Below, piece by piece: positions 4,007-41,456 of a stretch of DNA of 64,000 bases. Within the stretch, counting starts at the first letter, position 1. Each line of letters opens with the position of its first letter. Position numbers and translations under genes: made by a program. Source of the stretch: Thiohalocapsa sp. PB-PSB1. Its GTDB lineage: Bacteria; Pseudomonadota; Gammaproteobacteria; Chromatiales; Chromatiaceae. The notes under the pieces are model-generated. The model searched no databases. It saw only the letters and a program-made list of their open reading frames with translations, and had not been told where the DNA came from. The stretch is from NCBI GenBank assembly GCA_016745215.1, contig CP050890.1, positions 6,029,455-6,093,454 of the forward strand, given 5' to 3'.

Positions 4007-4525
4007 TCAGCCAGCCGGCTGCCATTCGTAAAGGATGCTCTCCTGCACCAGGGTGCCGCTGGTGGTATCCAGGCCCCAGGCGATGACGTCGCAGTAGACC
4101 GGGGTCTGTTCCGCCATGAGTAAGATATGGCGTTGGACTGCTTCGGCGTTGAGCAAATCCTGGTCCATGGTGCCGCGGGTGGTATTGAGCCAGGCACGGC
4201 GGTCGTCGAGCCATTGAGGGTCCATCAGCAGCTCCAGCCGGTGTGGGGTCAGGCCGTAGCAGGACAGCGCGCGGTGGCTGGCCGAGATGGCATCATCAAG
4301 GTGGTTGAGCAATTCGGCGTCCGCCTCGGTGGGCCAATAGGTGCGCAGCAACAGGGCGGCCCGGAAGATGTGCTGGACGAAGAAGTTCCACTGGCCCTGG
4401 AGGGCATCGGTTGGCGTGACGCTCTGGTAGAGCACCATAAAGCGCTTGTCGGCCAGCGCGCTCAAGACCTTGGACAGGCCGGAAGGCCTGTGGTAATCGG
4501 CATGTTGGATGTCCGGCCGGCGCAA
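4007..4525 (-). pseudogene. 5'-truncated paralog of the C-terminal domain of the 793-aa protein at 4661..7042
   Basis: Aligns residue by residue with the last ~170 aa of the 793-aa protein: YHRPSGLSKV...QHIFRAALLLRTYW...PVYCDVIAWGLDTTSGT versus YYSPSGLPNV...QHVFRAALLLKTYW...PVYCDVVTWGLDATNGT. Similarity starts at the first codon (TTG start in the track), and a stop lies immediately upstream in frame. Confidence 0.6.
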
Positions 4526-4660
4526 CTTCGTGGCCGATCGCTATGACATGTGTCGGAAGAGGGTTTCAGCGACAGGCGGTTCTCAAGTTGTTGATCTACA
4601 TGATACAACAGTCCCAGGAGATCCGGGAGAGCCGCGGAGACGACGTGCCACTTCTGCAAG

Positions 4661-7042
4661 TCAGCCCCAATGGTCGGAGGGCTGCCGTTCTGCCAAGATG
4701 CTCTTTTCGACCGTGGTACCGTTCGTGGCGTCAAGACCCCAGGTTACGACGTCGCAGTACACTGGCCCCTGCTGTGCGCGGGGCATCACAAGGCTCCGAA
4801 ACGCTTTGGCTTCGAGCAGCGCTTCGTCGACATTTCGGGTACCGCTGATCCAGCCTTGACGCTCTTCTATCCAATCCCTGTTCACCAACAGTTCAAGTGC
4901 GTGGGGGGCCAATCCTTGGCGTAACAGCGCGAAGCGGGTCGCTGCCATGGTATCATCCAACCGCGCGATGAGTAGGTCATCTGCCGCCCTGCCCCAGTAG
5001 GTTTTGAGAAGAAGCGCGGCTCGGAAGACATGCTGGGCAAGGTCGCGCCACTGCGCCTTCAATGCTTCCGCGAGGTTCTTGGCTTTGTAGAGCGCGTAGA
5101 ACTCTTTATCCTCGAGCTCCTTCCATACGTTTGGCAGGCCCGATGGGGAATAGTAGTCAGACTCAGTAATCGCAACGACCTGCAAGTGGTCGCGCAGACG
5201 AATCAAGCTACGCACATAATTCTGAAGCTCGGGCTTCTCCGATGAGTGGATTTGCGCGCTCTCCATTGCGATTTGAAACCGGTTTTCATTAGTTTGATAG
5301 GTAAAATCCGACGCGATATAACCCGACGCCTGGAGATCCTTGGCGATATATCCAATCATCTTCTCCATCTGCCTTTGCTCGTTTTCCAGCGATTTTTCCA
5401 GCGAATCGACCCTGGCGTCAAGTTGACCAATATCGCCTTTTGCCATTTCTAGGAGCGTGCTGTTTTTGTCACGCTCCTCCTCGAGCCTGCTTATCTCGCT
5501 TTCGGCTGCCTCGTCGATTTGCCCGAAGAGGTTGGCATGGAACGCAGTAAGACAGAGCGCCCAATAAAGATTTTCCAGCATATTGCGTATCGCGTTGAGT
5601 AAAAACCCGATATCAAGGGAATGATTGGACTGTATAGCTTGCAAGCCCTGCCGGAGCCTTTCAAGGTTTTCGAAGGCGTTGAGATTCTCCTTATGTGACT
5701 TCTCCAGCCCACTAGCATTATGCTGCCAATTCTCAGCCTGTTGCAGCTGCAAGCGAACTTTCAGTCGCTGGACGGATTCCGAAGCTTTCTCGATATATGA
5801 ACGCAGCGGCAGGGCTTTATCGATCTGATCGGTCATCTCACTCATCCACCGACCCTGTTCCTCGGAAAATTCCTGCTTCTGGTCCGAAACAAGGTGCCTT
5901 TCCGATTTTTGAACTAATTTTTTATATGCCACGTTATGAAAGTGCTCATTCGTCTTCTCATTGATTTTCTGCTCGAGTTGGCGATCAAACCACCATTGAC
6001 CTAACCAAACGAGAATGACGATCAGAACGCCTTCAATCACTGAAATCCAAAACAGCATCCAGAAAGTGACGCCTCTCGCTGTGGCACCAGCCCATAGATC
6101 CTGGACTTCAGCTGTTAATGTTTTATTGGATTCACTGAGTTCTTTGACCTTTTTTCTCTCATTTTCTCTTTCATCATTTGCTTGCTTCTTATCGTTTTCG
6201 AGCTGCTGATTTTGTTCCTTCAAATTGCTGATTTCTGCCTGGAGTTTGCGGATTTCTCCATTCTTTGTTTCAAGATTGCTACGCAGTTGCCCAATGCCAG
6301 CGGAATCCACTTCAGCTGATTTGTCTATTTTCTCATTGTTGTTAGTTTGTTGCTCGTTGTCAGCAGTTGTTGTATCAACAGATTGGGCATCGCTACCTGA
6401 AGTTGGATCATTAGATGGCGCGTCCTGCCCATATGTATCTGGACGTGGACCGCTACTTAACGAATTGACGAATTCCTCCTGGCTAACCAGCTTGCAGTCG
6501 GTAAAGAGTTTCTCAATAAGCTCGATACGCGTACCCAAAAAGCTAGTGAGCGTTTTGAGCTCTGTCTCGTCTGTCTGATAGGTCAGCTTTAAAATGGACA
6601 ACTGAGATCTGATATTCGAAGGCTTATTACCCCAGTTCTCGCTTATGCGGAGTAGCGCATTGTCGCGAAACAAAGTCTGTTGAAGCAGCTCCTGATAACC
6701 GTAACCCCTCTCATCATTTAGGTTGTCCAACCCGCCAGGGGTAATCAAGGTGCACAGCGAGGTTTGTTGGACCAATGCCTGCGCCGCTGCCCACCATTCG
6801 TATTTGGGAGCTCCTCTTTGGCCGAGCAAGAACGCGTCTGGATAGGTAGGCAGGCTTTCTCGGGGAGATTTAAGATTTTCGATGGCCTCTTTATCGATTC
6901 GATAGAAGTGAATGTCATTCTGGGTGTCGAATATTTTAATCTGTGTTTTGGAATATGTGATGTTTGCTGCCCACAACCCGTCTAAAGGCAACAGCAGGAT
7001 CGACAAGAAGACAGACAGGTATCGTAGTCGCAAATACATCAT
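4661..7042 (-). CDS. signal-peptide / single-TM coiled-coil membrane protein with a conserved C-terminal ~170-aa domain
   Basis: 793 aa. N-terminal signal (MMYLRLRYLSVFLSILLLPLDGLWA), K/E/Q-rich coiled-coil, TM VTFWMLFWISVIEGVLIVILVWLGQWWF. GC is markedly lower over ~5.2-6.7 kb than in the C-terminal domain. Confidence 0.6.
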   Translation of the reverse strand: MMYLRLRYLSVFLSILLLPLDGLWAANITYSKTQIKIFDTQNDIHFYRIDKEAIENLKSPRESLPTYPDAFLLGQRGAPKYEWWAAAQALVQQTSLCTLITPGGLDNLNDERGYGYQELLQQTLFRDNALLRISENWGNKPSNIRSQLSILKLTYQTDETELKTLTSFLGTRIELIEKLFTDCKLVSQEEFVNSLSSGPRPDTYGQDAPSNDPTSGSDAQSVDTTTADNEQQTNNNEKIDKSAEVDSAGIGQLRSNLETKNGEIRKLQAEISNLKEQNQQLENDKKQANDERENERKKVKELSESNKTLTAEVQDLWAGATARGVTFWMLFWISVIEGVLIVILVWLGQWWFDRQLEQKINEKTNEHFHNVAYKKLVQKSERHLVSDQKQEFSEEQGRWMSEMTDQIDKALPLRSYIEKASESVQRLKVRLQLQQAENWQHNASGLEKSHKENLNAFENLERLRQGLQAIQSNHSLDIGFLLNAIRNMLENLYWALCLTAFHANLFGQIDEAAESEISRLEEERDKNSTLLEMAKGDIGQLDARVDSLEKSLENEQRQMEKMIGYIAKDLQASGYIASDFTYQTNENRFQIAMESAQIHSSEKPELQNYVRSLIRLRDHLQVVAITESDYYSPSGLPNVWKELEDKEFYALYKAKNLAEALKAQWRDLAQHVFRAALLLKTYWGRAADDLLIARLDDTMAATRFALLRQGLAPHALELLVNRDWIEERQGWISGTRNVDEALLEAKAFRSLVMPRAQQGPVYCDVVTWGLDATNGTTVEKSILAERQPSDHWG

Positions 7043-10000
7043 TTGCTCTCCCCCTTGTCATCAAGCAAATCGGCCTGGCTTTGAGCACACAGCTTGGCCG
7101 CACCGAGGGGCCAGGGCCTGCGATGGTAGGAGAGCGTCGGGATGCTTTGCCGCCCGGTCAGCCTCCAGGTGCGGCCGGCGGTGTTGGTGACCTCGGCCTT
7201 CAGATAACCGGTTTCGTCGAAGTCCAGCTGGATAGTCAATTTGCAGTCCCCCGCGTAGAAGAGGTCCGGAAGCAGGTTGAAGCAGGAGGTGAAGCCATTG
7301 TTGGTCTCAAGGCCGATTTGGACTTCGCTGGCGTCTTGCAGAAAGAACTCGACGCGCTTGCCGGACTCTGGATAGGCGAGAAAGTCCCATTGCTCGGCGC
7401 GGGGCTCATAGCGGACGCCAAAGACGCCGGCGGTCTTCGGCGACTCGATCTCGATGTTGCGCCAGCGGTATTCGCGCTCGACGACGCCGAGCACGACGAC
7501 GCGTTTGAGACTGTCGGCCTCGGCGTTGAAATCGACCCAGTTGGGAATGTCGCCCAAGGTCTTGGCGAGGCGCTCGCGAAAGCCTGGCCACAGCGAGGTA
7601 CGCCCGGACAGGATGACGGTGTCCGGCTGCTGCAGGTCTTTGCCCAAAAAGCGTTCGACCTCGACGCGGGTGACCCGGTCGATGAAGGCGCTGGCATAGG
7701 CACCATCGAGGATGCGCTCGCTCCGCGGTGTCCAGAAAACCTTGCCGGACTCGGTCGCGTCGATCTCGGCGATGCTGCGATACATGCCCCTGGTCTCTTC
7801 GGCCTTGGTCTTGACCAACTGGGCGGCGGTGGCATATTTGCTGGTGAGTTCCAGACGCGGTTTCTTGCCGGCGCTGAGATCGGCCTTGAGCTGGTGGATC
7901 TGCTGGCGCAATTCGTCCATGCGGGTGCTCTCGGCAACGCTCATGGTCTCGCCCTCGTCCTTGACGACGATCCTCGTGAGGTAGCGGTCGCCCAGGTTGG
8001 CATCGAGGTAGGCATGCAGGTCGCGGGCGATGCATTCGTCGAGCAGGTCGCCGGCCTTGGTGACACCGCCGCGGCGCAGCACACGGATGCGCTTGGGCGT
8101 GCGGCCGCCGGCGTCATTGCGGATCCAGTCCACCTCCAAATAGGTCAGGTCCAGGGTGCCGGCACCGATATCGTAGACCAGGATGCGCTCGCGGTCGGGC
8201 ACGACAGAGCCCGACGTGCGCAGGTCATGGGCATGCATCAAATAGTAATAGGCGACGGCGTCGGACTCGCTGATGAAGTGGATATTATCTGGGTAGACGA
8301 TGTTCTCGCCTTGGGCCATGCCGGAAAAGACCTGCTCGACGACCTTGCGCAACTGCTCGACGTGGTTCTGGGTGTAGGTGTTCGGGTGAGTGATATAGAC
8401 GTGGGAGTAGCCAGTGTTTTGCTGCTCCAGAATCGGCGCGATAAAGTGTTGTACCAACCCGTGGTAAGCGCCTTCGATGACGGCATCCAGCGGAGGTGAG
8501 CTGAGGTTCTCTGGCTGATCCGCAAGGTTCGTATAGGGATGCTTGCGGGCATCGATGGGCAGGACCGTATAGCCGGCGGAGATCAGAGCCTTCAGCGATG
8601 AAAAGCACGTATCCGGGTCATTGGTTAACGCAGACAGGATCAACGGCAGATCGAGGAAATCAGGGCTGTCGGGCCTTGTCCGCGCGAGCTTGTCCCGGTC
8701 GTTGCAGACATTGAGTTCGGAGGCCAGGAAGTAGGGATTGCGCTTGCCCGGGTCGTCCCAGCGGCGGTCGATCTTGGTCTCCTTCTCGATGGCGTCCAGG
8801 CGCTTGGGCAAGGGCAACAGCTCGATATTCTGAGGGCCGATGGCATGGGCGACGGCCATGGCCGAGGTGCCGAAATCGATGGCGAGGACATGGCGTGGCG
8901 GCTCGTGGCGCAGCAAACAGATCGCCTGGGCACTGGTCTGGAAGCGCTTCACCGCATTCTTGTCCCTGGGGTCTTTGGCATGGACCTGCCAGTCCACCTC
9001 GACCTCGATTTCCAGACGAAAGTCCCGCCCGGTGATGATGACGAGTTCCAGATCCAGCGTCGCGCTCAGGTCGAGCTGGCGCTCTTCGAGGACCGGACTG
9101 TCTCGCAATGTGCCGGCCGCGCGGGGTTCGCCGCGGCCGTCGAGCAGATTCAGGGCGCCGGGCTCGAGCTGGATGTTGTGGCGATGAGTGACCCTGATCC
9201 TGGCCTGCCAGTCGGCATGACCATGACCGTTGCGACAGGCGTTGCCCAGTCGCACCTTGAACAGATCGTGCTGGCGCATCCCCTCCTGAACGTGGCGGTG
9301 GACCGAGATGGGCCGCTGCCGGCTGCCGATCGGGAAGGGAGCCGACAGGCTGTTGCGCGCCTCGTTCAGCGCCTTGGAGCGCTGAGTCTCGGTATATAGG
9401 ATGACCACGGAGACGTCGGTGCGCTCGGCGGAGCGCTGCACCTCCAGGCGCCATTCGTCGATCTTTTGCCAGCGCGGCTTGTCCCTGGCAGCGGGAACCG
9501 GCAGGGGTAGATCGGCATCTTTTGGTGGCGCGTCTTCGACGGGTTCGGAGTAGAAGATAACGATGCGGTAATTGTCGCGCTCGATGGGATTGGATAATTT
9601 GCGGAAGTCCAGATGCAGATCGACCAGCATCGGCTCTTTGTGGCGCAGATAGAGTTCGAGCTGGCTGTCGCGGTCGTCGCGGTGGACCAGCTCGACGGCG
9701 CCGGACTTGGTTTTTCCCTGGGCATCGTGGACATCGACCCCGAGCAGCCCCCGGACGGTATAGCTATAGCGATGCATTGCGCTGCTTGTCAGCTGGTAGC
9801 TGGCGAAACGGCTGACGGCGCCGGCCTGGTACTCGACCGGTATGAACGGATGGCCGTCGTCGTCGGCCCGCAGATCCATGCACTTTTGGCACAAGTGGGT
9901 GCGCTCGGGGATCAGCTCGACGTCCCAATGGTGTTTGAGGGTGCGCTCGCCGGCGCGGCCGGCGCCGATGTGCACCTTCGCAGGGATGGTCAGCCTGGCG

Positions 10001-12081
10001 TGCTCGACGCCGGCGATTTGCTCCAGATCGACGATTTCGCGGGGGTTGAAGAACAGGGGCAGCTCTTTGCCGGAGGCGACCTTGCGCTCGCTGTAGGCGT
10101 TGTTGGAGGGGCCGCCGATGGCCAACGGGGCATCGTCTCGACGAGGGTCGGCGAAACGGGGCTCGATGTCGGCGGCGGTACCTTCGGCCTGATCGCTCGG
10201 GCGCAATGTGCCGGTGTTCAGGGTGGCCTCGATGTGGCGGAATTCGGCGGTGTAGCTCGGATTGGACCTGGTGTTTTTCAGCAGCAGCATGCCGATGAGT
10301 TCGGCGCGCTGGGTCTGGGTGTCGTTGAAGTCGATCAACAGTCCGTCCGAGGCCAGGTCTTTCATCTGCACGTCCAGGCGCCGGCGCGGCCACAACAGCC
10401 AGAACAGAATCGGGCCAAAGATGATGACGCCGGCCAAGGTCAGGTAGAGCAGCCAGGCGTGCAAGCGCAGTTCCGACTGGTTATCTTCGATGGCATCCTT
10501 CTTTTCGCGGGACAGACGCGCGATGTGCTTGGCGGTAACGATGTCCGGATCGCGCTGGTCTTGCTCGGCTCGCTTGCGCAGGTCAGGCTCCCAGGCTTCG
10601 GCAAGCCGCTCAAGCTCCGCGGTGTCGATGGGTCTTTCCTCGAAGCCCGCTCCATTGTCGGGGAACATCCACTTGGGACTTGGCAACCCGCCCGCGATGT
10701 CCGCGCTATCGGTGTTGAAGTAGCTGAAGCTGGGCTCTGGTTGGATAAGCGCCACCCTGGCAAGGTCGCGGGCGCCAAGGCGGTGGCGATAGGGGTACAG
10801 GGACGGGGTGTTGGTGTTGCCGGGGAACTCCATGACGAAGTGGACTCGATAGCGTAGTTGGGACGGTACCTGGCCTTCGGGATAGTCAAGCTCAGGACCG
10901 CCCTGGCCGCAGTCAACGCGATCGGAGTCTCGCGCCGGTGACTGGCATGGTATCCAGCGCGCGCCGTCTTCGCTCCACTCCATCTGGTCGGGAATTAGGC
11001 GGTAAAGACCGTTTGGGTCGTCGAAGCCGGTGGCGAAGATCGGATTGTTGCCGACGAGACGGACGCCAGCGTCGTCGGTGTTGCCGCGGCGATAGAGAAC
11101 ATCGAGGGTAACTCGTTTTTGCTCGGTACGGGCAAGACCGCTCAAGGCTGGCACCTTGGGCTCGACAGACAGATAGGAGATCAGAAAGCCCTTGCCCCAG
11201 CCGGAGACCTTCTTGTAGGCATCCGGGCGGCAATCGAAGGGTTGCGTGAAGACGCTCCGAACTTCATGAGTCGGCAACACGCAGTCGATAGACTCGGCGC
11301 CGATGTCAAAGACCTTGTTGACCTGCCTGCTCAGCGCTGCATGCTGGTCGAAGCCGTCGTCGGCCGCCGTTGTCTTGGAGCGTTTTTGGATGACCCTGTG
11401 TTCGTCGGAGGCGTTTGCGTCGCTGTTGAAATCGCCGTCGGTGATGCGAACGATGTAGGTATTGTCGACGTCGCTTTGCGGAAGTCCGCCATGTTGAAAA
11501 GCCTCGCCTAGAAAGGGCAGGCTGGCGGCCGTTGCGGCGACTAGTGGCGAATGGCCGCCGAACGCGTCCTTGAGCTGGATTTCGCCGACGGGCGTACCCT
11601 GGACGTCGGTTTGGGTGAAGGATAAATAGGCTTCGGTGGTGGGCAGTATCCAGCTCTTGAGCAGAATGTCGTTGGTCAAAAAGAGATCGTGCTGGCGATA
11701 GGAGGGATAATCGAAGTCCACCCGGAACAGCAGTACCGAGATTTCGTCAGCGGTTGGGTCGTACGTCGGAATGGGCGACGGGGTCTCTGTAAGGACCTTG
11801 TCGATGAATTGACGCATGATCTCCGCCATCGCCCGGTTATTTCCGGTCATGCCCTGCCAAAGGTTATCGACCTTGGCATGCTGCTTGTACACCGAGCCGC
11901 TGGCGTCGAACAGCACAATATAATGGTTTTTGGCCACTGCCAGCGTGGGCCAGGTAAGAGCCAATGCGATGAAGGCGACGGTCAGGGCTCGCCCCTGGCG
12001 GAGCAGCCATTCAAACGCTGCTGGCGTTGTTGTGCCGATCCCGCGCATCCCGGTTCTCCGATCGATCTTTCTGGTTTTCAT
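7039..12081 (-). CDS. giant membrane protein: signal/TM - vWA (MIDAS) - TM - Hsp70/actin-fold ATPase
   Basis: vWA motifs IVLFDASGSV ... RITDGDFNSD. Hsp70-like phosphate-1 LAIDFGTSAMAVA, phosphate-2 VYDIGAGTLDLTY, adenosine motif VILSGRTSLWPGF. The ORF in the track runs to 12567. I place the start at MKTRKIDRR (~12081) to avoid a 467-nt overlap with the upstream gene. Confidence 0.7.
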   Translation of the reverse strand: MKTRKIDRRTGMRGIGTTTPAAFEWLLRQGRALTVAFIALALTWPTLAVAKNHYIVLFDASGSVYKQHAKVDNLWQGMTGNNRAMAEIMRQFIDKVLTETPSPIPTYDPTADEISVLLFRVDFDYPSYRQHDLFLTNDILLKSWILPTTEAYLSFTQTDVQGTPVGEIQLKDAFGGHSPLVAATAASLPFLGEAFQHGGLPQSDVDNTYIVRITDGDFNSDANASDEHRVIQKRSKTTAADDGFDQHAALSRQVNKVFDIGAESIDCVLPTHEVRSVFTQPFDCRPDAYKKVSGWGKGFLISYLSVEPKVPALSGLARTEQKRVTLDVLYRRGNTDDAGVRLVGNNPIFATGFDDPNGLYRLIPDQMEWSEDGARWIPCQSPARDSDRVDCGQGGPELDYPEGQVPSQLRYRVHFVMEFPGNTNTPSLYPYRHRLGARDLARVALIQPEPSFSYFNTDSADIAGGLPSPKWMFPDNGAGFEERPIDTAELERLAEAWEPDLRKRAEQDQRDPDIVTAKHIARLSREKKDAIEDNQSELRLHAWLLYLTLAGVIIFGPILFWLLWPRRRLDVQMKDLASDGLLIDFNDTQTQRAELIGMLLLKNTRSNPSYTAEFRHIEATLNTGTLRPSDQAEGTAADIEPRFADPRRDDAPLAIGGPSNNAYSERKVASGKELPLFFNPREIVDLEQIAGVEHARLTIPAKVHIGAGRAGERTLKHHWDVELIPERTHLCQKCMDLRADDDGHPFIPVEYQAGAVSRFASYQLTSSAMHRYSYTVRGLLGVDVHDAQGKTKSGAVELVHRDDRDSQLELYLRHKEPMLVDLHLDFRKLSNPIERDNYRIVIFYSEPVEDAPPKDADLPLPVPAARDKPRWQKIDEWRLEVQRSAERTDVSVVILYTETQRSKALNEARNSLSAPFPIGSRQRPISVHRHVQEGMRQHDLFKVRLGNACRNGHGHADWQARIRVTHRHNIQLEPGALNLLDGRGEPRAAGTLRDSPVLEERQLDLSATLDLELVIITGRDFRLEIEVEVDWQVHAKDPRDKNAVKRFQTSAQAICLLRHEPPRHVLAIDFGTSAMAVAHAIGPQNIELLPLPKRLDAIEKETKIDRRWDDPGKRNPYFLASELNVCNDRDKLARTRPDSPDFLDLPLILSALTNDPDTCFSSLKALISAGYTVLPIDARKHPYTNLADQPENLSSPPLDAVIEGAYHGLVQHFIAPILEQQNTGYSHVYITHPNTYTQNHVEQLRKVVEQVFSGMAQGENIVYPDNIHFISESDAVAYYYLMHAHDLRTSGSVVPDRERILVYDIGAGTLDLTYLEVDWIRNDAGGRTPKRIRVLRRGGVTKAGDLLDECIARDLHAYLDANLGDRYLTRIVVKDEGETMSVAESTRMDELRQQIHQLKADLSAGKKPRLELTSKYATAAQLVKTKAEETRGMYRSIAEIDATESGKVFWTPRSERILDGAYASAFIDRVTRVEVERFLGKDLQQPDTVILSGRTSLWPGFRERLAKTLGDIPNWVDFNAEADSLKRVVVLGVVEREYRWRNIEIESPKTAGVFGVRYEPRAEQWDFLAYPESGKRVEFFLQDASEVQIGLETNNGFTSCFNLLPDLFYAGDCKLTIQLDFDETGYLKAEVTNTAGRTWRLTGRQSIPTLSYHRRPWPLGAAKLCAQSQADLLDDKGESK

Positions 12082-12100
12082 GCGAATTCGGTCCTGAGCA

Positions 12101-33799: not shown

Positions 33800-34548
33800 T
33801 CCGGGCTGCTCCTGTCATCGGAGGTTTGATCACTTGCAGGATCGAGCAGCTTTTCGAAATCACGAGCGACCCCGACCAGGTAGGTCCGATTCATCTCTTG
33901 GAACAGCGCGGTCGCCAGCACGTTGCCGCGTTCTAGAGGGTTCAAATCGTTGAAGAACCAGTCGCTTACATTCTCGGCATTGTCGCTCGACAGCGGATGC
34001 TCCGTTGATGTCTGCCCGACGTTCTGCCGCGCGGGCGATGCCGCAGCACGAAACTCGGCGTATTCTGCCTCGCGGGAATCGCGGTTTTTCTTGCAGGCTT
34101 CCGACCAACGCGGAAACCATTCGTCGTATTTCGGTTTGCTCTCGCTGGCCAACCAGTCCCAGAGCTGAGGAACCCGATCGCGACTCTCGCAGTAGGAGAT
34201 CAACTCACGAAGGATACCGAAAAAACGATCCGTCTCCTTGAGCAGTTTGTGGACATCGTCAAAGTGCTCGAAGCAATAGGTGCGCAGGGCTTCCTCGTTA
34301 TGGAATGCACTGGAGAAGCACTCCAGCAAGACTGCTCTTGGGGACTCCTGGCCTCGACGTCTTGCGTCTCGGATCTTCGCTTCTTCGTCGTCAGTTTTCT
34401 CAGCGCGAGGGGTTGTTGAGGCTTCTGCGGATTGATCTGGTGGAGTCTTACTGGCCCTGGCGGTATCCGGGTCTTGTGCGTCAGCAGCGACTGTCTCAGC
34501 AACACTGTCGGGAGCCTCGGTGGATGTCTCTTCGAGATCGTTGGTCAT
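33796..34548 (-). CDS. acidic protein carrying a ~60-aa helical module homologous to the C-terminus of the upstream nucleosidase-like protein
   Basis: RAVLLECFSSAFHNEEALRTYCFEHFDDVHKLLKETDRFFGILRELISYCESRDRVPQLWDWL aligns with the upstream protein's C-terminal module. Start MTNDLEET forms an ATGA overlap with the upstream stop. The ORF in the track extends to 34767. Confidence 0.6.
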   Translation of the reverse strand: MTNDLEETSTEAPDSVAETVAADAQDPDTARASKTPPDQSAEASTTPRAEKTDDEEAKIRDARRRGQESPRAVLLECFSSAFHNEEALRTYCFEHFDDVHKLLKETDRFFGILRELISYCESRDRVPQLWDWLASESKPKYDEWFPRWSEACKKNRDSREAEYAEFRAAASPARQNVGQTSTEHPLSSDNAENVSDWFFNDLNPLERGNVLATALFQEMNRTYLVGVARDFEKLLDPASDQTSDDRSSPE

Positions 34549-35582
34549 CGGCCCATCTCTTGATATTTGGCGACGCAAGCATAGCTGCGCATTTGCAGCA
34601 GTTGCCATAGGGCGTCGGTCTGCGCCCGAGCAAGAACGTAGCCGATCAATTCGCGGGTGATGTGCGGCCGGCGGTCTATCTCGCGCAGGTTGCGATACAC
34701 CTCGGGGAAGTGCTCGAAGCAGAAGGCTCGCAGCTCGTCCTCGGTCGTCAATACGGTATCGATACACTCGAACAGAAGTTGCCGTTCCGATCGCCCATTC
34801 CCTCGTTGGGCTTGCTGATCATTGACTTCGGACTCCCCGTTACCGGATGACATGGGCATAAAGGACATCGCATGGACAACAAAGCCTGCCGCATTGCGCG
34901 CTGCGATCATCTGACGGGTATCCTTGTCCACCGCCTTGTTGCCATCGGCAAAGTCGCAGATAGCCTTGACGACGATCCAGTCCACCTTGGCGTCCGTGCA
35001 TGCGACATAGAGCCCGGCGCCCTCCATCTCGCCACCGATGATGTCGGGGGAGAATTGCAACAGCTGCGCGCGGTAGGCGCTGTTGTCCACCAACTTCTCA
35101 CCCGAAAGCATCAGGCCGAAATCGATGCGCGCCTCGTCCTGCGGCCAGGTCAAGGCGGCGTTGCGCAGGGCGTTGATCAGGCGGGTCGAGGCATGGGGGC
35201 GGTCGCCCCGCGCGACTTGCTGGCGTTCGCCGATCCGCTGCGCCTCGTAGAGCAACAATTGCAGCGATACCAGCAGGTCGCCGATCTGCTGCTTACCCTC
35301 GTCGACGCCAAAGGCGATACCGGCGAGGACGACCGCGGCCGGTGAGAGCGCCGCGATGGCTTTCTGTACGCTCACCAGCGAAGAACCGAGCCCCAAGGCG
35401 CCCATCTCGCAGAGCACGAGCATGGCGTGCCGGTCGGCGACATGGCCCAGGTCATGGTAGACTCGATCACCCGCCGGAACAGGTTGGGCCGGTTGCCCGC
35501 TGTGCTGCGCGAAGGCGCTGAGCATAGCGCGACTCTCCACCTCGGTGGCGGTAACGATCAGAATATCGGTCTGTGGCGACAT
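34545..35582 (-). CDS. purine-nucleoside-phosphorylase / MTA-SAH-nucleosidase-family enzyme with C-terminal effector-associated-type helical domain
   Basis: MSPQTDILIVTATEVESRAM ... IIGGEMEGAGLYVAC is the PNP/UDP-phosphorylase family hallmark. C-terminal module LLFECIDTVLTTEDELRAFCFEHFPEVYRNLREIDRRPHITRELIGYVLARAQTDALWQLL. The ORF in the track extends to 35948. Confidence 0.7.
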   Translation of the reverse strand: MSPQTDILIVTATEVESRAMLSAFAQHSGQPAQPVPAGDRVYHDLGHVADRHAMLVLCEMGALGLGSSLVSVQKAIAALSPAAVVLAGIAFGVDEGKQQIGDLLVSLQLLLYEAQRIGERQQVARGDRPHASTRLINALRNAALTWPQDEARIDFGLMLSGEKLVDNSAYRAQLLQFSPDIIGGEMEGAGLYVACTDAKVDWIVVKAICDFADGNKAVDKDTRQMIAARNAAGFVVHAMSFMPMSSGNGESEVNDQQAQRGNGRSERQLLFECIDTVLTTEDELRAFCFEHFPEVYRNLREIDRRPHITRELIGYVLARAQTDALWQLLQMRSYACVAKYQEMGR

Positions 35583-36712
35583 GGCACTCTCCAGGTCAGG
35601 ACGGGATGATGATCTTGGGCACTCGCAAGCACCGCTGCGGTTGTTTGTGTAGAGGGCGGCATTAGCGCCATCTGGAGAACCGACAGCACGAGCCACATAG
35701 CCCCTAGTCCGGCTCCCAATAGTAGACCTGTGCCCGCGCAGCGTCGTCGCGACATACGGAGCGCGCGGCGTTCCAGCGCTAGCCAGACGATAAGCCCGAT
35801 TCCGAGCAGACCGACCAGCCCCCACAACGTGGCCATGATCGCGCCGACCAATGCCACAGCCACCAGGCGCACGAGGTCGCCGACAGTCATTGCCCCGGTA
35901 TTGCCGGGGCGCGGGGCGATTATCGCAAGGTGCGCGATCAGGCCGCACTGGAGGAGCAGCAGTCCCACCGCGCTCGTGCCGTTGGCAATCATCGGTTGCC
36001 AGAACATCAGCACAAAGAAGCCCATTACCCAGGCACCGGAGAAGGTCAACTCTGCCGACGCCTTGGACCGATCTTGAACCTGCTCCAACAGTGCGGCCAT
36101 CGTGATGGCCAATAGGAACCAGGCACAGATGATGAAACCGCGCACGCCGAACTCGGCCACCAGCGGTTCATTGGCTGATGGCTCCGGGACCAGCAGCCAG
36201 GCGTTCGGATGTGCCAGCAGCATGCCCCAGAGATACAGCAGGGGCAGGGTCAGCAACAGCCGCGGCCAAGCCGCCTGGCGGTGCACCAGAAACAACAGCA
36301 GCATTGCCCCGCAGATGAAGATGCGCATCACCTGCCAGAAGCCTGCGTCGCCGGTGGCGAGGAATGCGCTGAATAGGTTCTGCCAAAGGTGTTCGCCCGG
36401 GGCGTAGACTGCCGCCCGTCCGCCAGTGTACAGCCAATACTCGAACAAATGCAGGAACAGATACACGGCCATCACCACCAGTGCCACATGGCTGGCTGCC
36501 GCGACTGGTACCCGGTTGATCCGCAGCAACAGGTACAGGCCGTAGTGCAGACTGATGTAGAACACCTGGGTCTCGATTACCGCGAGCGGCGTGACCCGCG
36601 TGTAACCGTCGAGGGGGAAGCGCGCCAGATCCAATGCGAAGCGCAGCGACAGCAGTATTACGAAGGTCGCGTAGTCGGTGACTACCGGCGGTAATCGTCG
36701 AGGCTCGGCCAT
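35558..36712 (-). CDS. polytopic integral membrane protein (about 10 TM)
   Basis: 384 aa with many hydrophobic helices. Its 3' end overlaps the start of the nucleosidase-like gene by ~25 nt. Confidence 0.6.
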   Translation of the reverse strand: MAEPRRLPPVVTDYATFVILLSLRFALDLARFPLDGYTRVTPLAVIETQVFYISLHYGLYLLLRINRVPVAAASHVALVVMAVYLFLHLFEYWLYTGGRAAVYAPGEHLWQNLFSAFLATGDAGFWQVMRIFICGAMLLLFLVHRQAAWPRLLLTLPLLYLWGMLLAHPNAWLLVPEPSANEPLVAEFGVRGFIICAWFLLAITMAALLEQVQDRSKASAELTFSGAWVMGFFVLMFWQPMIANGTSAVGLLLLQCGLIAHLAIIAPRPGNTGAMTVGDLVRLVAVALVGAIMATLWGLVGLLGIGLIVWLALERRALRMSRRRCAGTGLLLGAGLGAMWLVLSVLQMALMPPSTQTTAAVLASAQDHHPVLTWRVPCRHRPIF

Positions 36713-38991
36713 TGGACTTTCGCTTGTAAGCTGATGCGTTTGTCGTCTGATTGCCAGGTGTCGATCCGCAATAGCTCCAGCAGGGGTACTATATATTGGT
36801 CGTCAGCGCTATTCCCATTGCCAACGAACGTGCGCCACAAACCCTGCGCAAATTCCAGAACATTGGATTTATCCGAGGCATTGCCTTGGCTGAAGGTAGC
36901 AGAGTCGTCACTCTGGCTGAGTCCATCTAAGGTAGTGGTTGCGTCTATACGGGATTCTGAAGATTCATGCCGCGGGATTGGCCTTGATGAGGGATGGCGA
37001 GACAGCCGCACACAAACAATAGCACCTTCGAACGGCGCAAACCCACCTCGGCGTACACACCGCCCCGACCCTTGGAGAATGCCTATCTCGGCACTTGCTC
37101 CAACTGCGTTTTGCACGACAACTACATTAACCATATCTTTATCTGTCTTCAATTGCCCGAGCAGCTCTTCACTATCAATGCCAGCCCTTTTGGTCATCTC
37201 GGTAGCCGGAGCCATATCCTGCCGATAGGCATCGACGGCCTGCTCGAAAGCAGCCAGGTTTTGCGCCGTTGGACGCTGTTTCAGTGCCTGATAAACCGCC
37301 TTTAATTTCTTGTGCGCGTCTGATTCGAACTGGAGCACGGCAGTTTCAATGATGCTTGCGAGATCTTCTTTGCGCTCGTTCGGGTAGCGCGTGCGGAAAT
37401 TTCCCAGCAGCTGCCGAAGCTTATCCATGCCCGCGCGATCCAGTGAACCGACCCGCTCGGTCGTAGTCCGCAGTTTTTGCAATGCCTCTTGCTGCTCCAG
37501 CGCACGCACTTGCGCCTCAATATCGGCCAAATACGGGTTCCGCGGCAGGCTGTTATCCGCTTCATCAAGCCGCAGCCAGGCATAGCGCTCCCGAAGAGCC
37601 TGGGAGGTATCTGCGGCACCCACCCACTGCGCCACCTGTTGATAAAGACGATCTGAGGCGGCCAAAAACCTGTCGTTATCACTGGAATTCAGCAATTGCG
37701 GCATGGCTACGAGGGCAAGTAGATCCGCATTGAGACGATTGGTATCTTTAACATCGGTTTCGCTCGACGCCAGCTTCCCGTCAATCACCGCCAAACGCGA
37801 GCGGTATAGGTTGATCAGGGTTGCGCTACGCGCTGTGAGGTCTATACAGACCTGTTCGTCGGGATCTCGTTTACGCAGCTCGTCCGCACGTTGCAGCAAC
37901 GTACGCGTATCATCGAGACGGGTTTGCGAATTGTCAAAATCCTGCGACCAGGCGATGCAAGCCTTCTCAAGCTGTGTGTGGCGCCAAACACGTGGAACAA
38001 GCAAGATGCCCGTGGCGACGACCAAGGCCAAACCGATCCCCAACCATAGCTTGAGCTTGTTCGCTTTGCGTTGTTTAGGGTCGCCGATTGTGATTGGTTT
38101 TTGCGCTGAAGTTTGATCCACGGGCGTAGCCGCGGGCGCGGGTGCAGGTGTCTGTGCGGAGGGGATTTCCAGGGAGCGAGATGTCCAATTCGCGTCCCAA
38201 CAGCCGTTGATCAACTTGGCTGTATTGAGCCGATCTTCGCGTAAGCTCGTGCTCGCCGCTCCTCGATCAGATATCGAGAGTGTTGAGCCACGGGCGATGT
38301 CGATCCGCTCTTGGAAGATCTGCTTGAGTCTAAATGGTCCGCAAACACAGGAGGTCGATCCTCGCCGCTGATGGGGTAAACTCAGGAGCAGCAGCTCATA
38401 GAACTGAGGAGGGATCTCTGCGGGCAACCGAATGGGCGGTATGCCTTGCCAAATCTCGGCAAGTTGGAGGCGCCAAGGTTCCGATATCTGCGATACATCC
38501 TTGTCTTGATCCGGCTGGTCAAGCTCAGGTTCATTTGCCCCGAATTGATCGAAGTCCGGCAGGGCTGTCGCTGAGAATTCCGCGGCGTTTTTCACCAGAT
38601 GCGGCAGTCGGAAAGGGTTGAAGTCGAGCGCCTGCCATTGCTCCGCGGTCAGCAGCACCGCGTGTCCGGTGCGCGAGACCCGTCCGCCAGAGGCCCAGTT
38701 GAAGTAGACCCGGCAGATCAGATGTATGTAGCGCAGTCCATCGAAATCGGGCGAATCGGTCAGCGGCAGGCTGATGACGCCGACCTCGTCTCGCCAATCG
38801 CCATTCTGCCAGTCGCGGCAGCGTTCCCGAACGCGCTCGAAATCCGGCTCTGCCTCTTCCGCTGATTGCACCCATTTCGGCAGCCACTCATCGAGCCACT
38901 CCTTCAACGGGCTCGCGGCGGCAGGGAAGATACGGCTCTCGTTGACCTGACGCAGCTCGCCGAACAGATAGTGTAGGTAGCTGTTGGGCAT
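36682..38991 (-). CDS. hypothetical single-TM protein (769 aa)
   Basis: Central TM LWLGIGLALVVATGILLV. The C-terminal half is a long helical region. Overlaps neighbours on both sides. Confidence 0.55.
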   Translation of the reverse strand: MPNSYLHYLFGELRQVNESRIFPAAASPLKEWLDEWLPKWVQSAEEAEPDFERVRERCRDWQNGDWRDEVGVISLPLTDSPDFDGLRYIHLICRVYFNWASGGRVSRTGHAVLLTAEQWQALDFNPFRLPHLVKNAAEFSATALPDFDQFGANEPELDQPDQDKDVSQISEPWRLQLAEIWQGIPPIRLPAEIPPQFYELLLLSLPHQRRGSTSCVCGPFRLKQIFQERIDIARGSTLSISDRGAASTSLREDRLNTAKLINGCWDANWTSRSLEIPSAQTPAPAPAATPVDQTSAQKPITIGDPKQRKANKLKLWLGIGLALVVATGILLVPRVWRHTQLEKACIAWSQDFDNSQTRLDDTRTLLQRADELRKRDPDEQVCIDLTARSATLINLYRSRLAVIDGKLASSETDVKDTNRLNADLLALVAMPQLLNSSDNDRFLAASDRLYQQVAQWVGAADTSQALRERYAWLRLDEADNSLPRNPYLADIEAQVRALEQQEALQKLRTTTERVGSLDRAGMDKLRQLLGNFRTRYPNERKEDLASIIETAVLQFESDAHKKLKAVYQALKQRPTAQNLAAFEQAVDAYRQDMAPATEMTKRAGIDSEELLGQLKTDKDMVNVVVVQNAVGASAEIGILQGSGRCVRRGGFAPFEGAIVCVRLSRHPSSRPIPRHESSESRIDATTTLDGLSQSDDSATFSQGNASDKSNVLEFAQGLWRTFVGNGNSADDQYIVPLLELLRIDTWQSDDKRISLQAKVQWPSLDDYRR

Positions 38992-41456
38992 TATTGTCTC
39001 CCGGCGGACGGTGGGTCCGGTGGTGTCAGATCCTTCGGATCGAACGGCAGCGGCGGCAACTCAAGCCCCTTTAAGCGCGCGCTGGCCGTTGCATTGCTCA
39101 GCCCTGATGTTGCAACGTTAAGCAGCGCGTGGACCGAGCTGTTGGCAAGCGTCGTACTTTGGCCGGAGGTTTCATTGCTGATGTGCAGTTCGACAGGGTT
39201 GCCCGGTTCCCACCAGAGGCTGTCCACCGCCAAGCGTGGCAAAAAACCCGAGTAGGACGAGTTGGCCATGATCTGACCGCCAATGATCAGAGTCAGAGTA
39301 CCCGACGGCTTGACAGAGTTTTTGTAGTAGCAGGTCTCGGGATTGTATGAGCTGCCGCAGTCGTAGGGCCGTCGATCGATTCGAATGAATGGCTCGGCGT
39401 CCTTGATCGAGACCTTGATGCCGTCCAGCCGATAGGTTCGGCTCAGTTGCTGATGCCAATACATGAATTGTTCGGCCCTATCCCAGTAGACTGGCGAGTG
39501 ATTGGACACTTCCACCTGTCGTTCTCGTGCATGTTTGAGGTAGGTTTCTACGCTTTGGACCAGCTCAGGAGTCACGCTCGCAGGGCCGTCGAGCCGACTC
39601 AGGTCCTGGTAGAGCTTGTTCGCTTCCTCGAAATCCCAGCGATCTCCGGCCTTGGTCAGATCGGCACAGAATTCCGGGCGCAATGTCTCTTCGGTACAGA
39701 TTAAACAAGCCTGAGCCAGAGACTCGAACTGGGCGTCTCGCTGATCCGGATTCTGCTTGGCGATGCGCTGGTATTGATCAAAAAGTAGATCGCATCGGCC
39801 ACGATCATCTGCAGCAAGTCCTGCCGCGAGCTGGGTCCGATCGACGCCAATGCCGGCAACTTGCAGCGCCTTCAGAACGGTCAGATAGGACTCGACTTGT
39901 TTTGTGGCTAATGCCTCGGGGATGCCTTGCGTTTTCGCCAGTCGCCAGATCGCGTCGATGGCCTGGACCAGAAACTCTGCTCGCGCAGGGCCGTAGTCCA
40001 CTAATAGGCGCATGACATCGCCCGCACCTTCCGGAAGCTGCTCGAAACGCTCGCGGGTGGACTGAATCCGCGTGGCCAAGTCCTGCCATTCGCGGTCTCG
40101 CTCGGCGAGCTTGTCCATCATCACACTGAAGTCGCTTTGGCGTCGGAGCAGCGTGAACAGGTCCGCAGTTTCCGCCTGCAAATTCTCTAACCTATTTTCG
40201 AGGGTTTGCAGCGTGAAGCGGCGCTCGATCAACCAGGCCTGCCGCGCTTCCACTAAGTCAGGAAAATTGCCGAATGGGATAGGCCGGTCTGCAAGAAAAG
40301 CGAATGGATGGCCGATGCTCAATGCCTGCCGCGCCTGCTCAAGAACGGTCGTGGCCTGAACCGATCCGGCTTGCTGATCATAGGCCGCAGCCTGCTCCTT
40401 GACCGCATCAATGGTGCGTCGGTCCCGATCGATTCCCACGAGCACGATGATGGCGAGCAGCACAACGCCCAAGGCATAGGGCGCGGCCTTGAGTGCTGCA
40501 ACCTTGACTTCTTGCTGCTGTTGCATGCGTATCGCGGCATACATGCCGGTTTCCAAGGTTTCGGCGACACCAAGTGGCATCCAGTCCGCGAACCGATTGA
40601 TGACGAAGGCGGGCTCGCCCTCAGGGCCGGATTTCTGCTTTGGTGCGGCGCCGAGTGCTGCCACGTAGCACACCCGAACACAGGATCTTCGGCGGCTGGC
40701 CAGGAGCACATCTGCCAGTGTCCCCGCATTTTGACGATACAGAAAGTCACGAAAGACTTCCTTACCCTGCTTGATTGCCTCGGCACTGCGATTGTTGAGC
40801 TGCTCGATCTCTTCTTTGATTTCGGATGACGAATTTCCGGCGTACAGCAGATCTGCCTTGGTGACGACGATGACAATGGGCCAGCCTGGTCGGGATTCCG
40901 TAAAGGCTTGATAGGCACGCTGAATCGCTTCGCCTTGCCCCTGGTGGCGCCCAGCGGACAGATCGTCTTGATCTGGGCCACGATGCAGGCTGGCATCGAA
41001 AAACAGATACAAGCAGTCGCTGCGCTTGATGTGCTCCTGGAGTTGAAGCTGTGCGTCCTCCATCTTCTGGATGGCAGCGAGCTCGCCTGTATAGTCGAAG
41101 GTCGTACAATCGAACGGTTGCTTACCAGCAAACTCAAGCGCAAGGTGAATTCGCAGCCATTCGTTGTGCTGTGTCTTTGGGACATAAGCTTCGTCCCGCA
41201 GCAGATCGATGCGCGAGAGTCCGCGGTCATCGACCGGGTGCGAGAAAAAAGATACTTCCCCTTTGAGAAGCTTCTCGGTAACACCGAGCGCACGGCCGGA
41301 AATACCGGATCGTAAGCGGCCGAAACGGGAGGCCAGCAAGGCCGTGGTCAGAAAGGTGCTCTTGCCGGATGCCTGGTAGCCGAGGAAAGTTGCCTTGATC
41401 TCGCGTGTTAAAGGCTTGGCTGGTTCGGATGCGAGTGTTGCAGAGTCTCTGGTCAT
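38991..41456 (-). CDS. membrane-anchored P-loop GTPase (821 aa)
   Basis: G1 FLGYQASGKSTF, G3 DYTGE, G4 VVTKADL. TM YALGVVLLAIIVLVGI. A ~470-aa C-terminal helical region. Confidence 0.65.
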   Translation of the reverse strand: MTRDSATLASEPAKPLTREIKATFLGYQASGKSTFLTTALLASRFGRLRSGISGRALGVTEKLLKGEVSFFSHPVDDRGLSRIDLLRDEAYVPKTQHNEWLRIHLALEFAGKQPFDCTTFDYTGELAAIQKMEDAQLQLQEHIKRSDCLYLFFDASLHRGPDQDDLSAGRHQGQGEAIQRAYQAFTESRPGWPIVIVVTKADLLYAGNSSSEIKEEIEQLNNRSAEAIKQGKEVFRDFLYRQNAGTLADVLLASRRRSCVRVCYVAALGAAPKQKSGPEGEPAFVINRFADWMPLGVAETLETGMYAAIRMQQQQEVKVAALKAAPYALGVVLLAIIVLVGIDRDRRTIDAVKEQAAAYDQQAGSVQATTVLEQARQALSIGHPFAFLADRPIPFGNFPDLVEARQAWLIERRFTLQTLENRLENLQAETADLFTLLRRQSDFSVMMDKLAERDREWQDLATRIQSTRERFEQLPEGAGDVMRLLVDYGPARAEFLVQAIDAIWRLAKTQGIPEALATKQVESYLTVLKALQVAGIGVDRTQLAAGLAADDRGRCDLLFDQYQRIAKQNPDQRDAQFESLAQACLICTEETLRPEFCADLTKAGDRWDFEEANKLYQDLSRLDGPASVTPELVQSVETYLKHARERQVEVSNHSPVYWDRAEQFMYWHQQLSRTYRLDGIKVSIKDAEPFIRIDRRPYDCGSSYNPETCYYKNSVKPSGTLTLIIGGQIMANSSYSGFLPRLAVDSLWWEPGNPVELHISNETSGQSTTLANSSVHALLNVATSGLSNATASARLKGLELPPLPFDPKDLTPPDPPSAGRQ

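Follow-up and report, generated by a model that had tools for sequence, protein, structure and literature searches.

Does the long run of same-strand genes at positions 4007-41456 of a chromosomal stretch from Thiohalocapsa sp. PB-PSB1 encode one molecular system or two neighbouring ones? The organism, a purple sulfur bacterium, lives in the 'pink berry' aggregates of Sippewissett. The locus lies on its 7.95 Mb chromosome (contig CP050890.1, assembly GCA_016745215.1), within a stretch of 64,000 nucleotides (nt), 6,029,455-6,093,454, which was analyzed as a whole and is called the window here. Positions are window coordinates, and L-numbers (L002-L041) denote contigs with related loci. A preliminary description made from the DNA letters had read the array as a single system not seen before. 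We favor, at a probability of roughly 70%, two neighbouring and independently conserved modules: module A (31418-41456), of the conflict-type GTPase kind, and module B (4007-30136), of the FtsZl1-vWA type. The array is read as two units because each module is conserved elsewhere without the other, and because the split falls at a spacer.

Gene array and boundary between the modules

The array consists of 16 substantial open reading frames (ORFs) of 172-1680 amino acids (aa), all on the minus strand and arranged head to tail from 4007 to 41456. The GTPase and five more of their products match deposited PB-PSB1 proteins exactly. From the GTPase end, the features are as follows, with family matches given as expectation values (E) or as bit scores next to the gathering score (GA), and with predicted transmembrane (TM) helices and metal-ion-dependent adhesion site (MIDAS) motifs.

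38991-41456, minus strand: 821-aa membrane-anchored GTPase; DO-GTPase-like domain at about residues 15-315, one TM helix at 324-342
36682-38991, minus strand: 769-aa GTPase partner; cytoplasmic N-terminal domain at about 1-240, one TM helix at 315-333, helical and beta extracytoplasmic part
35558-36712, minus strand: 384-aa polytopic membrane protein; 6-8 hydrophobic segments by hydropathy
34545-35582, minus strand: 345-aa protein of the PNP/MTA-nucleosidase family with a C-terminal EAD7 adaptor; PNP_UDP_1 3.2e-13, EAD7 8.3e-17 (61 bits)
33796-34551, minus strand: 251-aa EAD7 adaptor; disordered N-terminus, EAD7 and a C-terminal part of about 100 aa
32639-33799, minus strand: 386-aa all-helical HEAT-like protein; Pfam DNA_alkylation (a HEAT-like repeat family) 7.2e-7
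31418-32584, minus strand: 388-aa SPFH/Band_7-like protein, last gene of module A; Band_7 27.4 bits (GA 23.6)
30137-31417: non-coding spacer of 1281 nt between modules A and B
29105-30136, minus strand: 343-aa membrane-anchored CAP/SCP-domain protein; CAP 3.8e-13, YkwD 1.8e-17, N-terminal TM helix
25568-28918, minus strand: 1116-aa all-helical cytoplasmic protein; orthologues at 24-42% identity in the same position in L005, L015 and L017
23284-25629, minus strand: 781-aa vWA protein; VWA_2 2.8e-8, MIDAS DQSGS, beta-rich region, TM helix at 633-651, short cytoplasmic tail
20027-23218, minus strand: soluble FtsZl1/Tubulin_2 protein of about 1058-1063 aa; Tubulin_2 1.3e-30 (107 bits), long helical/coiled-coil C-terminus
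16079-19993, minus strand: 1304-aa TM-vWA-TM-tubulin protein; VWA_2 4.3e-13, Tubulin_2 24 bits (GA 27), MIDAS DTSGS, TM helix at 352-370, degenerate T4 loop (GGVS/GAG), helical C-terminus
12101-16039, minus strand: 1312-aa TM-vWA-TM-tubulin protein; VWA 1.9e-18, Tubulin_2 2.7e-18 (67 bits), MIDAS DHSGS, canonical GGGTGSG, helical C-terminus
7039-12081, minus strand: 1680-aa protein; TM anchor, periplasmic domain (DASGS...TDG), TM helix at about 540-560, cytoplasmic region of about 470 aa, C-terminal Hsp70 module
4661-7042, minus strand: 793-aa coiled-coil membrane protein; signal/anchor, coiled coils on either side of a TM helix at 329-347, conserved C-terminal domain
4007-4525, minus strand: small stand-alone ORF; matches residues 625-789 of the 793-aa protein (166 aa at 48% identity, E=1.5e-49)

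The 18 genes counted previously are reached with two more tiny ORFs, of 35 and 68 aa, which a public gene call for this contig places in and next to the spacer. Three starts were corrected: the nominal 1842-aa ORF begins at an ATG at 12081, 19 nt past the stop of the upstream gene, giving the 1680-aa product, and the PNP and EAD7 (33796-34551) genes begin at about 35582 and 34551, respectively. With these starts the junctions are, from the GTPase end, -1, -31, -25, -7, -4, +54, +1281, +186, -62, +65, +33, +39, +19, -4 and +135 nt, where the -62 junction between the helical and vWA genes becomes about +13 if a downstream ATG is used. The tight junctions described before thus hold, the one feature overlooked being the 135 nt ahead of the final small ORF; the other large gaps are the spacer and the 186 nt between the CAP and helical genes. 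That nearly every product is membrane-associated was too strong a statement, as TM segments are predicted in 9 or 10 of the 16 products.

G+C content falls to 0.518 in the 30-32 kb bin, compared with 0.57-0.61 around it. The spacer contains no ORF with a family match, and a scan for promoter- and terminator-like sites gave none above chance. Rfam returned no family in the window, and no repeats were found inside the array.

Synteny of each module in related loci

Related loci separate at the 1281-nt spacer. L009 and L010, whose GTPase is 65% identical, carry all seven genes of module A in colinear order, and the orthologue of the SPFH-like gene (69% identical) closes the module. Upstream are TIR and NACHT genes and downstream unrelated convergent genes (transglutaminase, alpha-E and ATP-grasp); these flanks hold no tubulin or vWA gene. 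In L011 and L012 (GTPase 49% identical) only the GTPase, a partner of about 740 aa and the polytopic protein are retained, and a 413-aa protein, Trypco1, Trypsin_2 and AAA_16 stand in place of the cassette.

On the last two contigs, positions 3907-9822 directly upstream of the trio and on the same strand encode a 1140-aa triple-AAA protein, a 540-aa HSP70 and a 257-aa ORF. With this HSP70 gene, Hsp70 linkage recurs in this GTPase family.

The gene order of module B is CAP, helical (about 1100 aa), vWA (about 780 aa), FtsZl1 (about 1060 aa), two vWA-tubulin genes (about 1300 aa each), Hsp70 fusion (about 1690 aa) and coiled-coil (about 790 aa). This block occurs in L002-L008, L015-L017 and L038-L040, on at least 11 contigs without module A, including those of Ca. 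Thiosymbion oneisti, a Kentrum-like contig and uncultured gammaproteobacteria. Its orthologous CAP genes head the block in L015, L017, L038, L039 and L040 and are internal in L005, and the coiled-coil gene comes after the Hsp70-like gene in L002-L008. In L005 and L040 the block is circularly permuted, with the Hsp70 fusion and the coiled-coil gene ahead of the CAP gene. Where flanks can be seen, L038 has transposases, L005 a U49 peptidase and AAA_14, L040 an AMP-binding gene and L002 SmpB, FtsY and RecC; module A is never among them.

Scans of genome and metagenome contigs found no second genome with both modules adjacent. A hidden Markov model (HMM) of the GTPase domain finds one copy per locus and none in any tubulin locus. 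A scan of genome contigs with the 1116-aa helical protein alone gave nothing, and in metagenome contigs the GTPase alignment picked up nothing beyond one truncated copy (L041). A phage or plasmid origin of the array was also considered and rejected: viral contigs hold no relative of the tubulin or the GTPase, and plasmids hold only distant Tubulin_2 genes, in Thermus and Meiothermus.

Could the whole array nevertheless be one system, in which the module A GTPase controls the assembly of module B, comparable to the GAP1-N2 systems of Firmicutes and Actinobacteria? All genes are adjacent and on one strand. Neighbourhoods of GTPase with tubulin and vWA, and of GTPase with HSP70, have been published (PMC7159879), a diverged GTPase is a frequent neighbour of FtsZl1 (PMC2875224), and the HSP70 gene precedes the L011/L012 trio. 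Against this stand the conservation of each module without the other wherever flanks are visible, the 1281-nt non-coding spacer, the end of module A at the SPFH-like gene in L009/L010 and the failure to find a second genome with adjacent modules. The neighbourhood search proposed in the preliminary description does recover syntenic genes in other genomes, but as two separate blocks, the GTPase block and the tubulin block each being conserved alone. We therefore consider a single system quite unlikely.

The reading as two independent modules has its own difficulties. Module A loci are few, as the four contigs represent two distinct arrangements, and contigs L015, L017 and L039 stop at the CAP gene, so their upstream flank is out of view. 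GTPase, tubulin, vWA and HSP70 genes are linked in other phyla (Kaur et al. 2020, PMC7159879), and the GTPase trio of L011/L012 lies directly downstream of an HSP70 gene; together these leave room for a functional link between A and B in PB-PSB1. GAP1, the defining partner of DO-GTPases, goes undetected in module A by Pfam models at permissive E-values. In the canonical vWA-tubulin family the periplasmic vWA domain is as conserved as the NTPase parts (49-80% versus 42-81%), which does not fit a rapidly diversifying invader sensor and keeps a housekeeping role of module B in envelope or membrane remodelling plausible. Finally, our literature search found no experimental study of FtsZl1-vWA operons or of DO-GTPase/EAD systems.

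A chance run of unrelated same-strand genes with spurious domain resemblance would account for the several products without a family match and for the one tubulin and one EAD7 match below gathering scores. Gene order is, however, conserved across many contigs at 30-85% identity, catalytic motifs are invariant, and the Hsp70 fold is recovered at E=4.6e-17. The synteny and fold results refute this explanation, whose probability we regard as negligible.

Module A: a GTPase core with an exchangeable effector cassette

The GTPase matches Pfam DO-GTPase2 marginally (27.6 bits, GA 27) and DO-GTPase1 at E=0.025; among eight homologues, six match DO-GTPase2 and three match DO-GTPase1. Its motifs GxxxxGKST, DYxGE and TKAD are invariant in six full-length orthologues, as are D121, G124 and E125 of the DYTGE sequence, whereas E125 is replaced in two fusions to an FGE-sulfatase domain. 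The P-loop starts at residue 26 and there is no Cys-rich N-terminus, hence no zinc ribbon. Behind the TM helix, a C-terminal part of about 480 aa with helical and beta elements is predicted to be extracytoplasmic. From these motifs and matches, the protein is classed as a DO-GTPase-like TRAFAC GTPase. The earlier assignment was right in recognizing a GTPase with intact motifs; its Ras-like label was rejected on the basis of the intact P-loop, DxxGE and TKAD motifs and the DO-GTPase2 score.

The FGE-sulfatase fusions are found in L013 (10001-13855) and L014 (526-4380), where the GTPase domain (60% identity over 300 aa) is part of a 1284-aa protein with a C-terminal FGE-sulfatase domain. The fusion gene adjoins VMAP-C/caspase-like and MoxR (AAA_5) genes. 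Here the GTPase domain is a module in a MoxR-type ternary system.

Directly downstream, the 769-aa partner sits where GAP1 sits in DO-GTPase systems. Its family is very small, with 14 relatives in 1.84 billion representatives. The N-terminal domain retains 30-68% identity and the extracytoplasmic half 10-18% in distant relatives, and such fast divergence of the outer half would suit a sensor. Pfam models of GAP1 match neither the partner (E up to 5) nor 13 members of its family (E up to 1), a negative that comes without a positive control, as the candidate loci L025 and L027 gave tubulin (with vWA in L027 only) and no GTPase or GAP1. GASH and FNIII models likewise match none of the products of 31418-41456. 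The third core component, the 384-aa polytopic protein, has no Pfam match and is kept together with the GTPase and the partner in L009-L012 at 54-67% identity.

The cassette that follows carries the putative effector. NCBIfam places the PNP-EAD7 protein with MTA/SAH nucleosidases (3.3e-18), its closest PDB entries are MTA/SAH nucleosidases (down to 2.4e-9), and PADLOC matches it to 'Effector PN-superfamily' (4.6e-15) and PDC-M60C. It is the only PADLOC match of the array; a match to LmuB was rejected as coiled-coil noise. The EAD7 of the adjacent 251-aa adaptor scores below the gathering score (27.7 bits, GA 32), is 36% identical over 104 aa to that of the PNP protein (E=1.3e-15), and is also present on the L009 orthologue of the adaptor. 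No EAD7 is fused to any core component of module A. The preliminary description had recognized a nucleosidase-like enzyme with a pairing helical module, and both parts hold (PNP_UDP_1 and EAD7, with a second EAD7 in the next gene); the idea that the paired helical domain is a novel module was rejected, since it is EAD7.

The HEAT-like gene travels with the PNP-EAD7 cassette, being present in L009/L010 and absent from L011/L012, and the final gene bears out the SPFH-like protein described before. Comparison of these loci indicates that the predicted effector cassette of module A is exchangeable, with PNP-EAD7 here and Trypco1/trypsin elsewhere.

Module B: tubulin-like, vWA and accessory proteins

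The soluble FtsZl1 protein has about 35 full-length orthologues at 38-86% identity, and its GIGGTGD and AGGTGAG motifs are invariant in 27 of them. Of the two membrane-anchored tubulin proteins, the 1312-aa one has orthologues at 39-77% identity, and the two are paralogues across both domains (BLASTP 1.7e-17 over 694 aa). Because of this clear paralogy, the sub-threshold Tubulin_2 match of the 1304-aa protein is counted as real, and the three tubulin-like domains noted previously all stand (107, 67 and 24 bits). In every 1304-aa-type orthologue (L002, L006-L008, L038 and L040) the GGGTG(S/T)G loop has lost its Thr (GGVGAG or GGVSTG), whereas the 1312-aa type keeps it. Such conserved T4 degeneracy next to an intact type suggests a fixed pair of an active GTPase and a pseudo-GTPase.

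Orthologues of the 781-aa vWA protein occur in L005, L015-L018 and L038-L040. In the three vWA domains recognized by Pfam, the MIDAS residues DxSxS, T and D are conserved in orthologues. Four intact MIDAS vWA domains had been proposed; the fourth, at the N-terminus of the 1680-aa protein, is recognized by its motif alone. In both vWA-tubulin proteins the vWA domain lies between the N-terminal anchor and the second TM helix; given a cytoplasmic location of the tubulin domain, which binds GTP, it must be periplasmic. This agrees with the vWA-TM-NTPase topology predicted before.

The CAP match confirms the CAP domain described earlier. The 1116-aa helical protein has no match in Pfam, NCBIfam or PADLOC, and the 793-aa protein gives only coiled-coil noise in the same databases. 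The stand-alone copy of its C-terminal region at 4007-4525 has no separate counterpart in other loci, where only the fused version is seen; it may be a regulatory domain that was duplicated or a fragment in decay, and whether it belongs to module B is uncertain. No OmpA or protein kinase domain was found by Pfam in the array products.

Hsp70 fold of the 1680-aa protein

Homologues of the 1680-aa protein are rare, with eight found in 5.8 billion clusters. By sequence the C-terminal module is barely recognizable as Hsp70: Pfam HSP70 gives E=0.31 (9.7 bits), and phmmer and a seven-sequence profile against the PDB give E=0.3-0.9, covering the DxGxGTxD strand only. We therefore turn to its predicted structure. 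For the last 653 residues, an AlphaFold (AF2) model based on seven homologues has a pLDDT of 73.8 and a pTM of 0.72. The top 50 Foldseek matches of this model in the PDB are all Hsp70s (DnaK, BiP, Hsc70, Ssb and Hsp110), with DnaK 7kru_A at E=4.6e-17 over about 630 aligned columns. The module comprises a nucleotide-binding domain and a beta substrate-binding-like domain, and the alignment to Hsp70s spans both. The motifs DFGTS, DIGAGTLD and SGRTSLWPG are invariant in homologues. The structure prediction called for in the preliminary description, which had proposed an Hsp70-fold ATPase, thus confirms the Hsp70 fold at the level of a predicted model.

In the N-terminal vWA-like domain, D59-S61-S63, T184 and D215 (DxSGS...T...TDG) are invariant in homologues. 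They align on the MIDAS strands of a dedicated vWA HMM run with filters off, at insignificant scores. Neither Pfam, a profile against the PDB nor hhalign against the vWA-tubulin family gave a significant vWA match.

Genomic surroundings and hosts

The array lies between stretches rich in mobile elements. Dense repeats, insertion sequences (IS), patatin and MazE genes and mobile-element debris fill 41500-50600, upstream of the GTPase gene. The individual features are:

369-1907: IS-type transposase DDE_Tnp_1_6, downstream of the array
42918-43217 and 48163-48462: 300-nt duplicate (99%) common to two patatin genes
43730-43971: tandem units of 14-29 nt
44079-44909: DDE_Tnp_1 transposase
46292-46857: tandem duplication of 223 nt
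46907-47173: MazE antitoxin gene

The IS and the repeat/patatin/MazE stretch around the array fit an island-like, rearrangement-prone and transposon-rich region. Farther upstream, perfectly complementary inverted repeats of 81 nt (50236-50316 and 57650-57730, with a second copy at 50401-50481) frame a 7.3-kb segment; they lie within regions 50202-50526 and 57611-57770. Inside are genes resembling those for succinate dehydrogenase/fumarate reductase (52017-55372) and one for NamZ (55463-56857), and the segment may be mobile or able to invert. Towards the other end of the window, 59270-62919 holds genes for a bacteriophytochrome (PAS_2-GAF-PHY) and for a PAS/Fis-type regulator.

According to L015-L021 and the taxon names of protein matches, hosts of module B-like blocks include Thiohalocapsa PB-PSB1, Ca. 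Thiosymbion oneisti, Ca. Kentrum, Thiotrichaceae, Thiomargarita and an Anaerolineae metagenome-assembled genome. These are aggregate-forming, symbiotic (nematode, ciliate), filamentous or giant bacteria, an apparent association. Pink-berry aggregates, nematode and ciliate symbionts and Thiomargarita as hosts fit the proposed tie of such systems to multicellular or social lifestyles.

The same hosts, as aggregate-forming, symbiotic or giant sulfur bacteria with unusual envelopes, bear on whether module B takes part in conflict at all. It may instead be a housekeeping or conditional cytoskeleton that remodels membranes or organizes the envelope, as Makarova and Koonin proposed, with only module A being defensive. 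Besides the conservation of the periplasmic vWA domain given above, this is supported by the lack of a recognized toxic effector domain and of PADLOC matches in module B, and by the position of the block beside SmpB, FtsY and RecC in Ca. Thiosymbion. It is opposed by the patchy spread (about 35 close orthologues of the soluble tubulin and eight Hsp70 fusions in very large databases), by transposases flanking the block in L007, L008, L038 and the window, and by the defence-type neighbours in L005 (U49 peptidase and AAA_14). Kaur et al. moreover class sets of tubulin, vWA and HSP70 as conflict-system components (PMC7159879). We regard a housekeeping module B as somewhat unlikely.

Proposed mechanisms

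Within the two-module reading, gene content, domain folds, motif integrity, the logic of the topology and independent synteny are shown, and every functional step is inferred from them. In module A, the extracytoplasmic parts of the GTPase and of its 769-aa partner would sense an envelope or invader cue, and the GTPase would change state, acting as a threshold switch. The small EAD7 protein could then recruit the PNP-EAD7 nucleosidase to the core by EAD7-EAD7 pairing, while the SPFH-like and HEAT-like proteins, which co-vary with the cassette, may hold it at the membrane. The nucleosidase would deplete adenine nucleotides, as published ATP-nucleosidase effectors do, and growth of the infected cell would stop. 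The 'threshold-gated conflict apparatus' of the preliminary description agrees with the published prediction for GTPase/EAD systems (PMC7159879).

In module B, the periplasmic MIDAS vWA domains would bind a ligand, and binding may nucleate or release polymerization of soluble FtsZl1 on the membrane-anchored tubulin domains. The Hsp70 fusion could remodel or disassemble the FtsZl1 assembly, and the outcome would be local membrane remodelling or containment. Taken further, module B might be a ligand-gated transmembrane cytoskeleton, in which vWA binding nucleates and then dismantles an FtsZl1 polymer via active and pseudo tubulins and the Hsp70, perhaps wired, in PB-PSB1, to the neighbouring GTPase/PNP suicide module. 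We consider this extended model speculative and, taken whole, unlikely; if true, it would represent a receptor-tubulin signalling principle not shown in any organism.

If the mechanisms hold, module B illustrates how a binding event outside the cell can be coupled to cytoskeletal assembly, and module A adds a GTPase-gated route to nucleotide-depletion immunity. The architectures themselves are explicit: a single TM helix joins a periplasmic vWA-type domain to a tubulin-like GTPase in two proteins and to an Hsp70 in a third. As neither kind of system has been studied experimentally, any well-defined example is a possible entry point, and the receptor-tubulin and receptor-Hsp70 architectures as well as the GAP1-less GTPase core merit experimental follow-up. 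In practical terms, gene starts were corrected and the locus was split into two real units, each tied to the literature. Overall, the observations of the preliminary description were confirmed and its interpretation was supported in part.

Comparison with known systems

Two published families of systems frame the locus. Kaur, Burroughs, Iyer and Aravind (2020, eLife 9:e52696, PMC7159879) predicted GTPase-centric conflict systems composed of a DO-GTPase, GAP1 and GASH or FNIII, with effectors that include PNPase and trypsin and with EAD adaptors that pair homotypically. Combinations of TRAFAC GTPases with tubulin homologues and vWA, and with HSP70, are described in the same work. The systems are enriched in multicellular prokaryotes, the tubulin-linked versions occur only in Firmicutes and Actinobacteria, and zinc ribbons on the GTPase and/or two paralogous GTPases are frequent, not universal. 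Makarova and Koonin (2010, Biol Direct 5:33, PMC2875224) defined FtsZl1, now Pfam Tubulin_2, and predicted a membrane-remodelling machine whose operon partners are vWA proteins, a frequent diverged GTPase, OmpA-like proteins and kinases; the earlier statement that FtsZl1/Tubulin_2 genes lie beside vWA genes was correct.

Module A is, as far as its sequence tells, a divergent GTPase-centric conflict system of the kind that Kaur et al. predicted. It shares with those systems a TRAFAC GTPase with a Walker B Glu, a partner gene directly downstream, TM-anchored parts, an exchangeable effector cassette, the same EAD in adjacent genes and a multicellular (aggregate) host. It differs in having a single GTPase without a zinc ribbon and no match to GAP1-N/M/C, GASH or FNIII, and in carrying EAD7 on a small stand-alone protein, whereas EAD1 or GAAD is fused to GAP1 in the published systems. 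PB-PSB1 accessions are absent from the supplement of Kaur et al. (PMC7159879), and papers on PB-PSB1 discuss conflict systems linked to diversity-generating retroelements and not this locus.

In place of GAP1, the 769-aa partner shows a weak likeness to TagF, a type VI secretion regulator (PDB 9t0n and 2qnu; 13% identity, Foldseek E about 0.1). Unlike TagF, it has a TM helix and a periplasmic part, and no type VI secretion genes lie nearby. New in module A is therefore a core with no detectable GAP1, FNIII or GASH and a weakly TagF-like partner instead.

For the effector, the closest parallels are the PNP-family immune effectors Cap17 (CBASS) and DtcC (Detocs), whose ATP nucleosidase activity has been shown (bioRxiv 10.1101/2023.01.24.525353). 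The PNP protein resembles them in its PNP_UDP_1/MTA-nucleosidase-like domain and its PADLOC PN-superfamily effector match, with an activity predicted from sequence. Unlike Cap17 and DtcC, it is tied via EAD7 to a GTPase module and not to a cyclic-nucleotide or two-component sensor.

Module B appears to be a proteobacterial form of the FtsZl1-vWA operon. In accordance with such operons it has a soluble FtsZl1 of about 1060 aa with an N-terminal tubulin domain and a helical/coiled-coil tail, and several large membrane-associated vWA proteins with intact MIDAS. The closest published neighbourhood is that of Magnetospirillum magneticum AMB-1 (Additional file 5 of PMC2875224), comprising amb2957 (vWA, 752 aa), amb2958 (FtsZl1, 1133 aa), amb2959 (vWA, 1196 aa), amb2960 (vWA, 1171 aa) and amb2961 (COG0443 DnaK, 1626 aa). 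It is colinear with the 781-, 1063-, 1304-, 1312- and 1680-aa proteins of module B, a likeness of order, size and annotation. The combination is thus not undescribed, and the Hsp70, effector and GTPase additions are not new as had been supposed, since Kaur et al., the AMB-1 neighbourhood with its 1626-aa DnaK-like protein, and PNP effectors and EAD adaptors were already in print.

The 2010 account differs in that the Hsp70 component is undiscussed there, the tubulin domains of the 'vWA' proteins of about 1200-1300 aa are unnoted, and CAP, 1116-aa helical and coiled-coil partners are not described. Unlike FtsZl1 operons, moreover, the locus has no OmpA or kinase gene. A diverged GTPase does lie 1.3 kb upstream of the block, as part of the separately conserved module A. 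The Hsp70 module is like DnaK in its predicted nucleotide-binding and beta substrate-binding domains and in its intact phosphate-1, phosphate-2 and adenosine motifs. Unlike DnaK, to which it is about 14% identical, it forms the C-terminus of a 1680-aa protein that crosses the membrane twice and has a large periplasmic domain, and neither a helical lid nor a gene for GrpE or a J-domain protein was detected in module B. What is new in module B are the receptor-like vWA-TM-tubulin and vWA-like-TM-Hsp70 fusions. New as well is the gammaproteobacterial host, unlike the Firmicutes and Actinobacteria that carry the tubulin-linked systems of Kaur et al.

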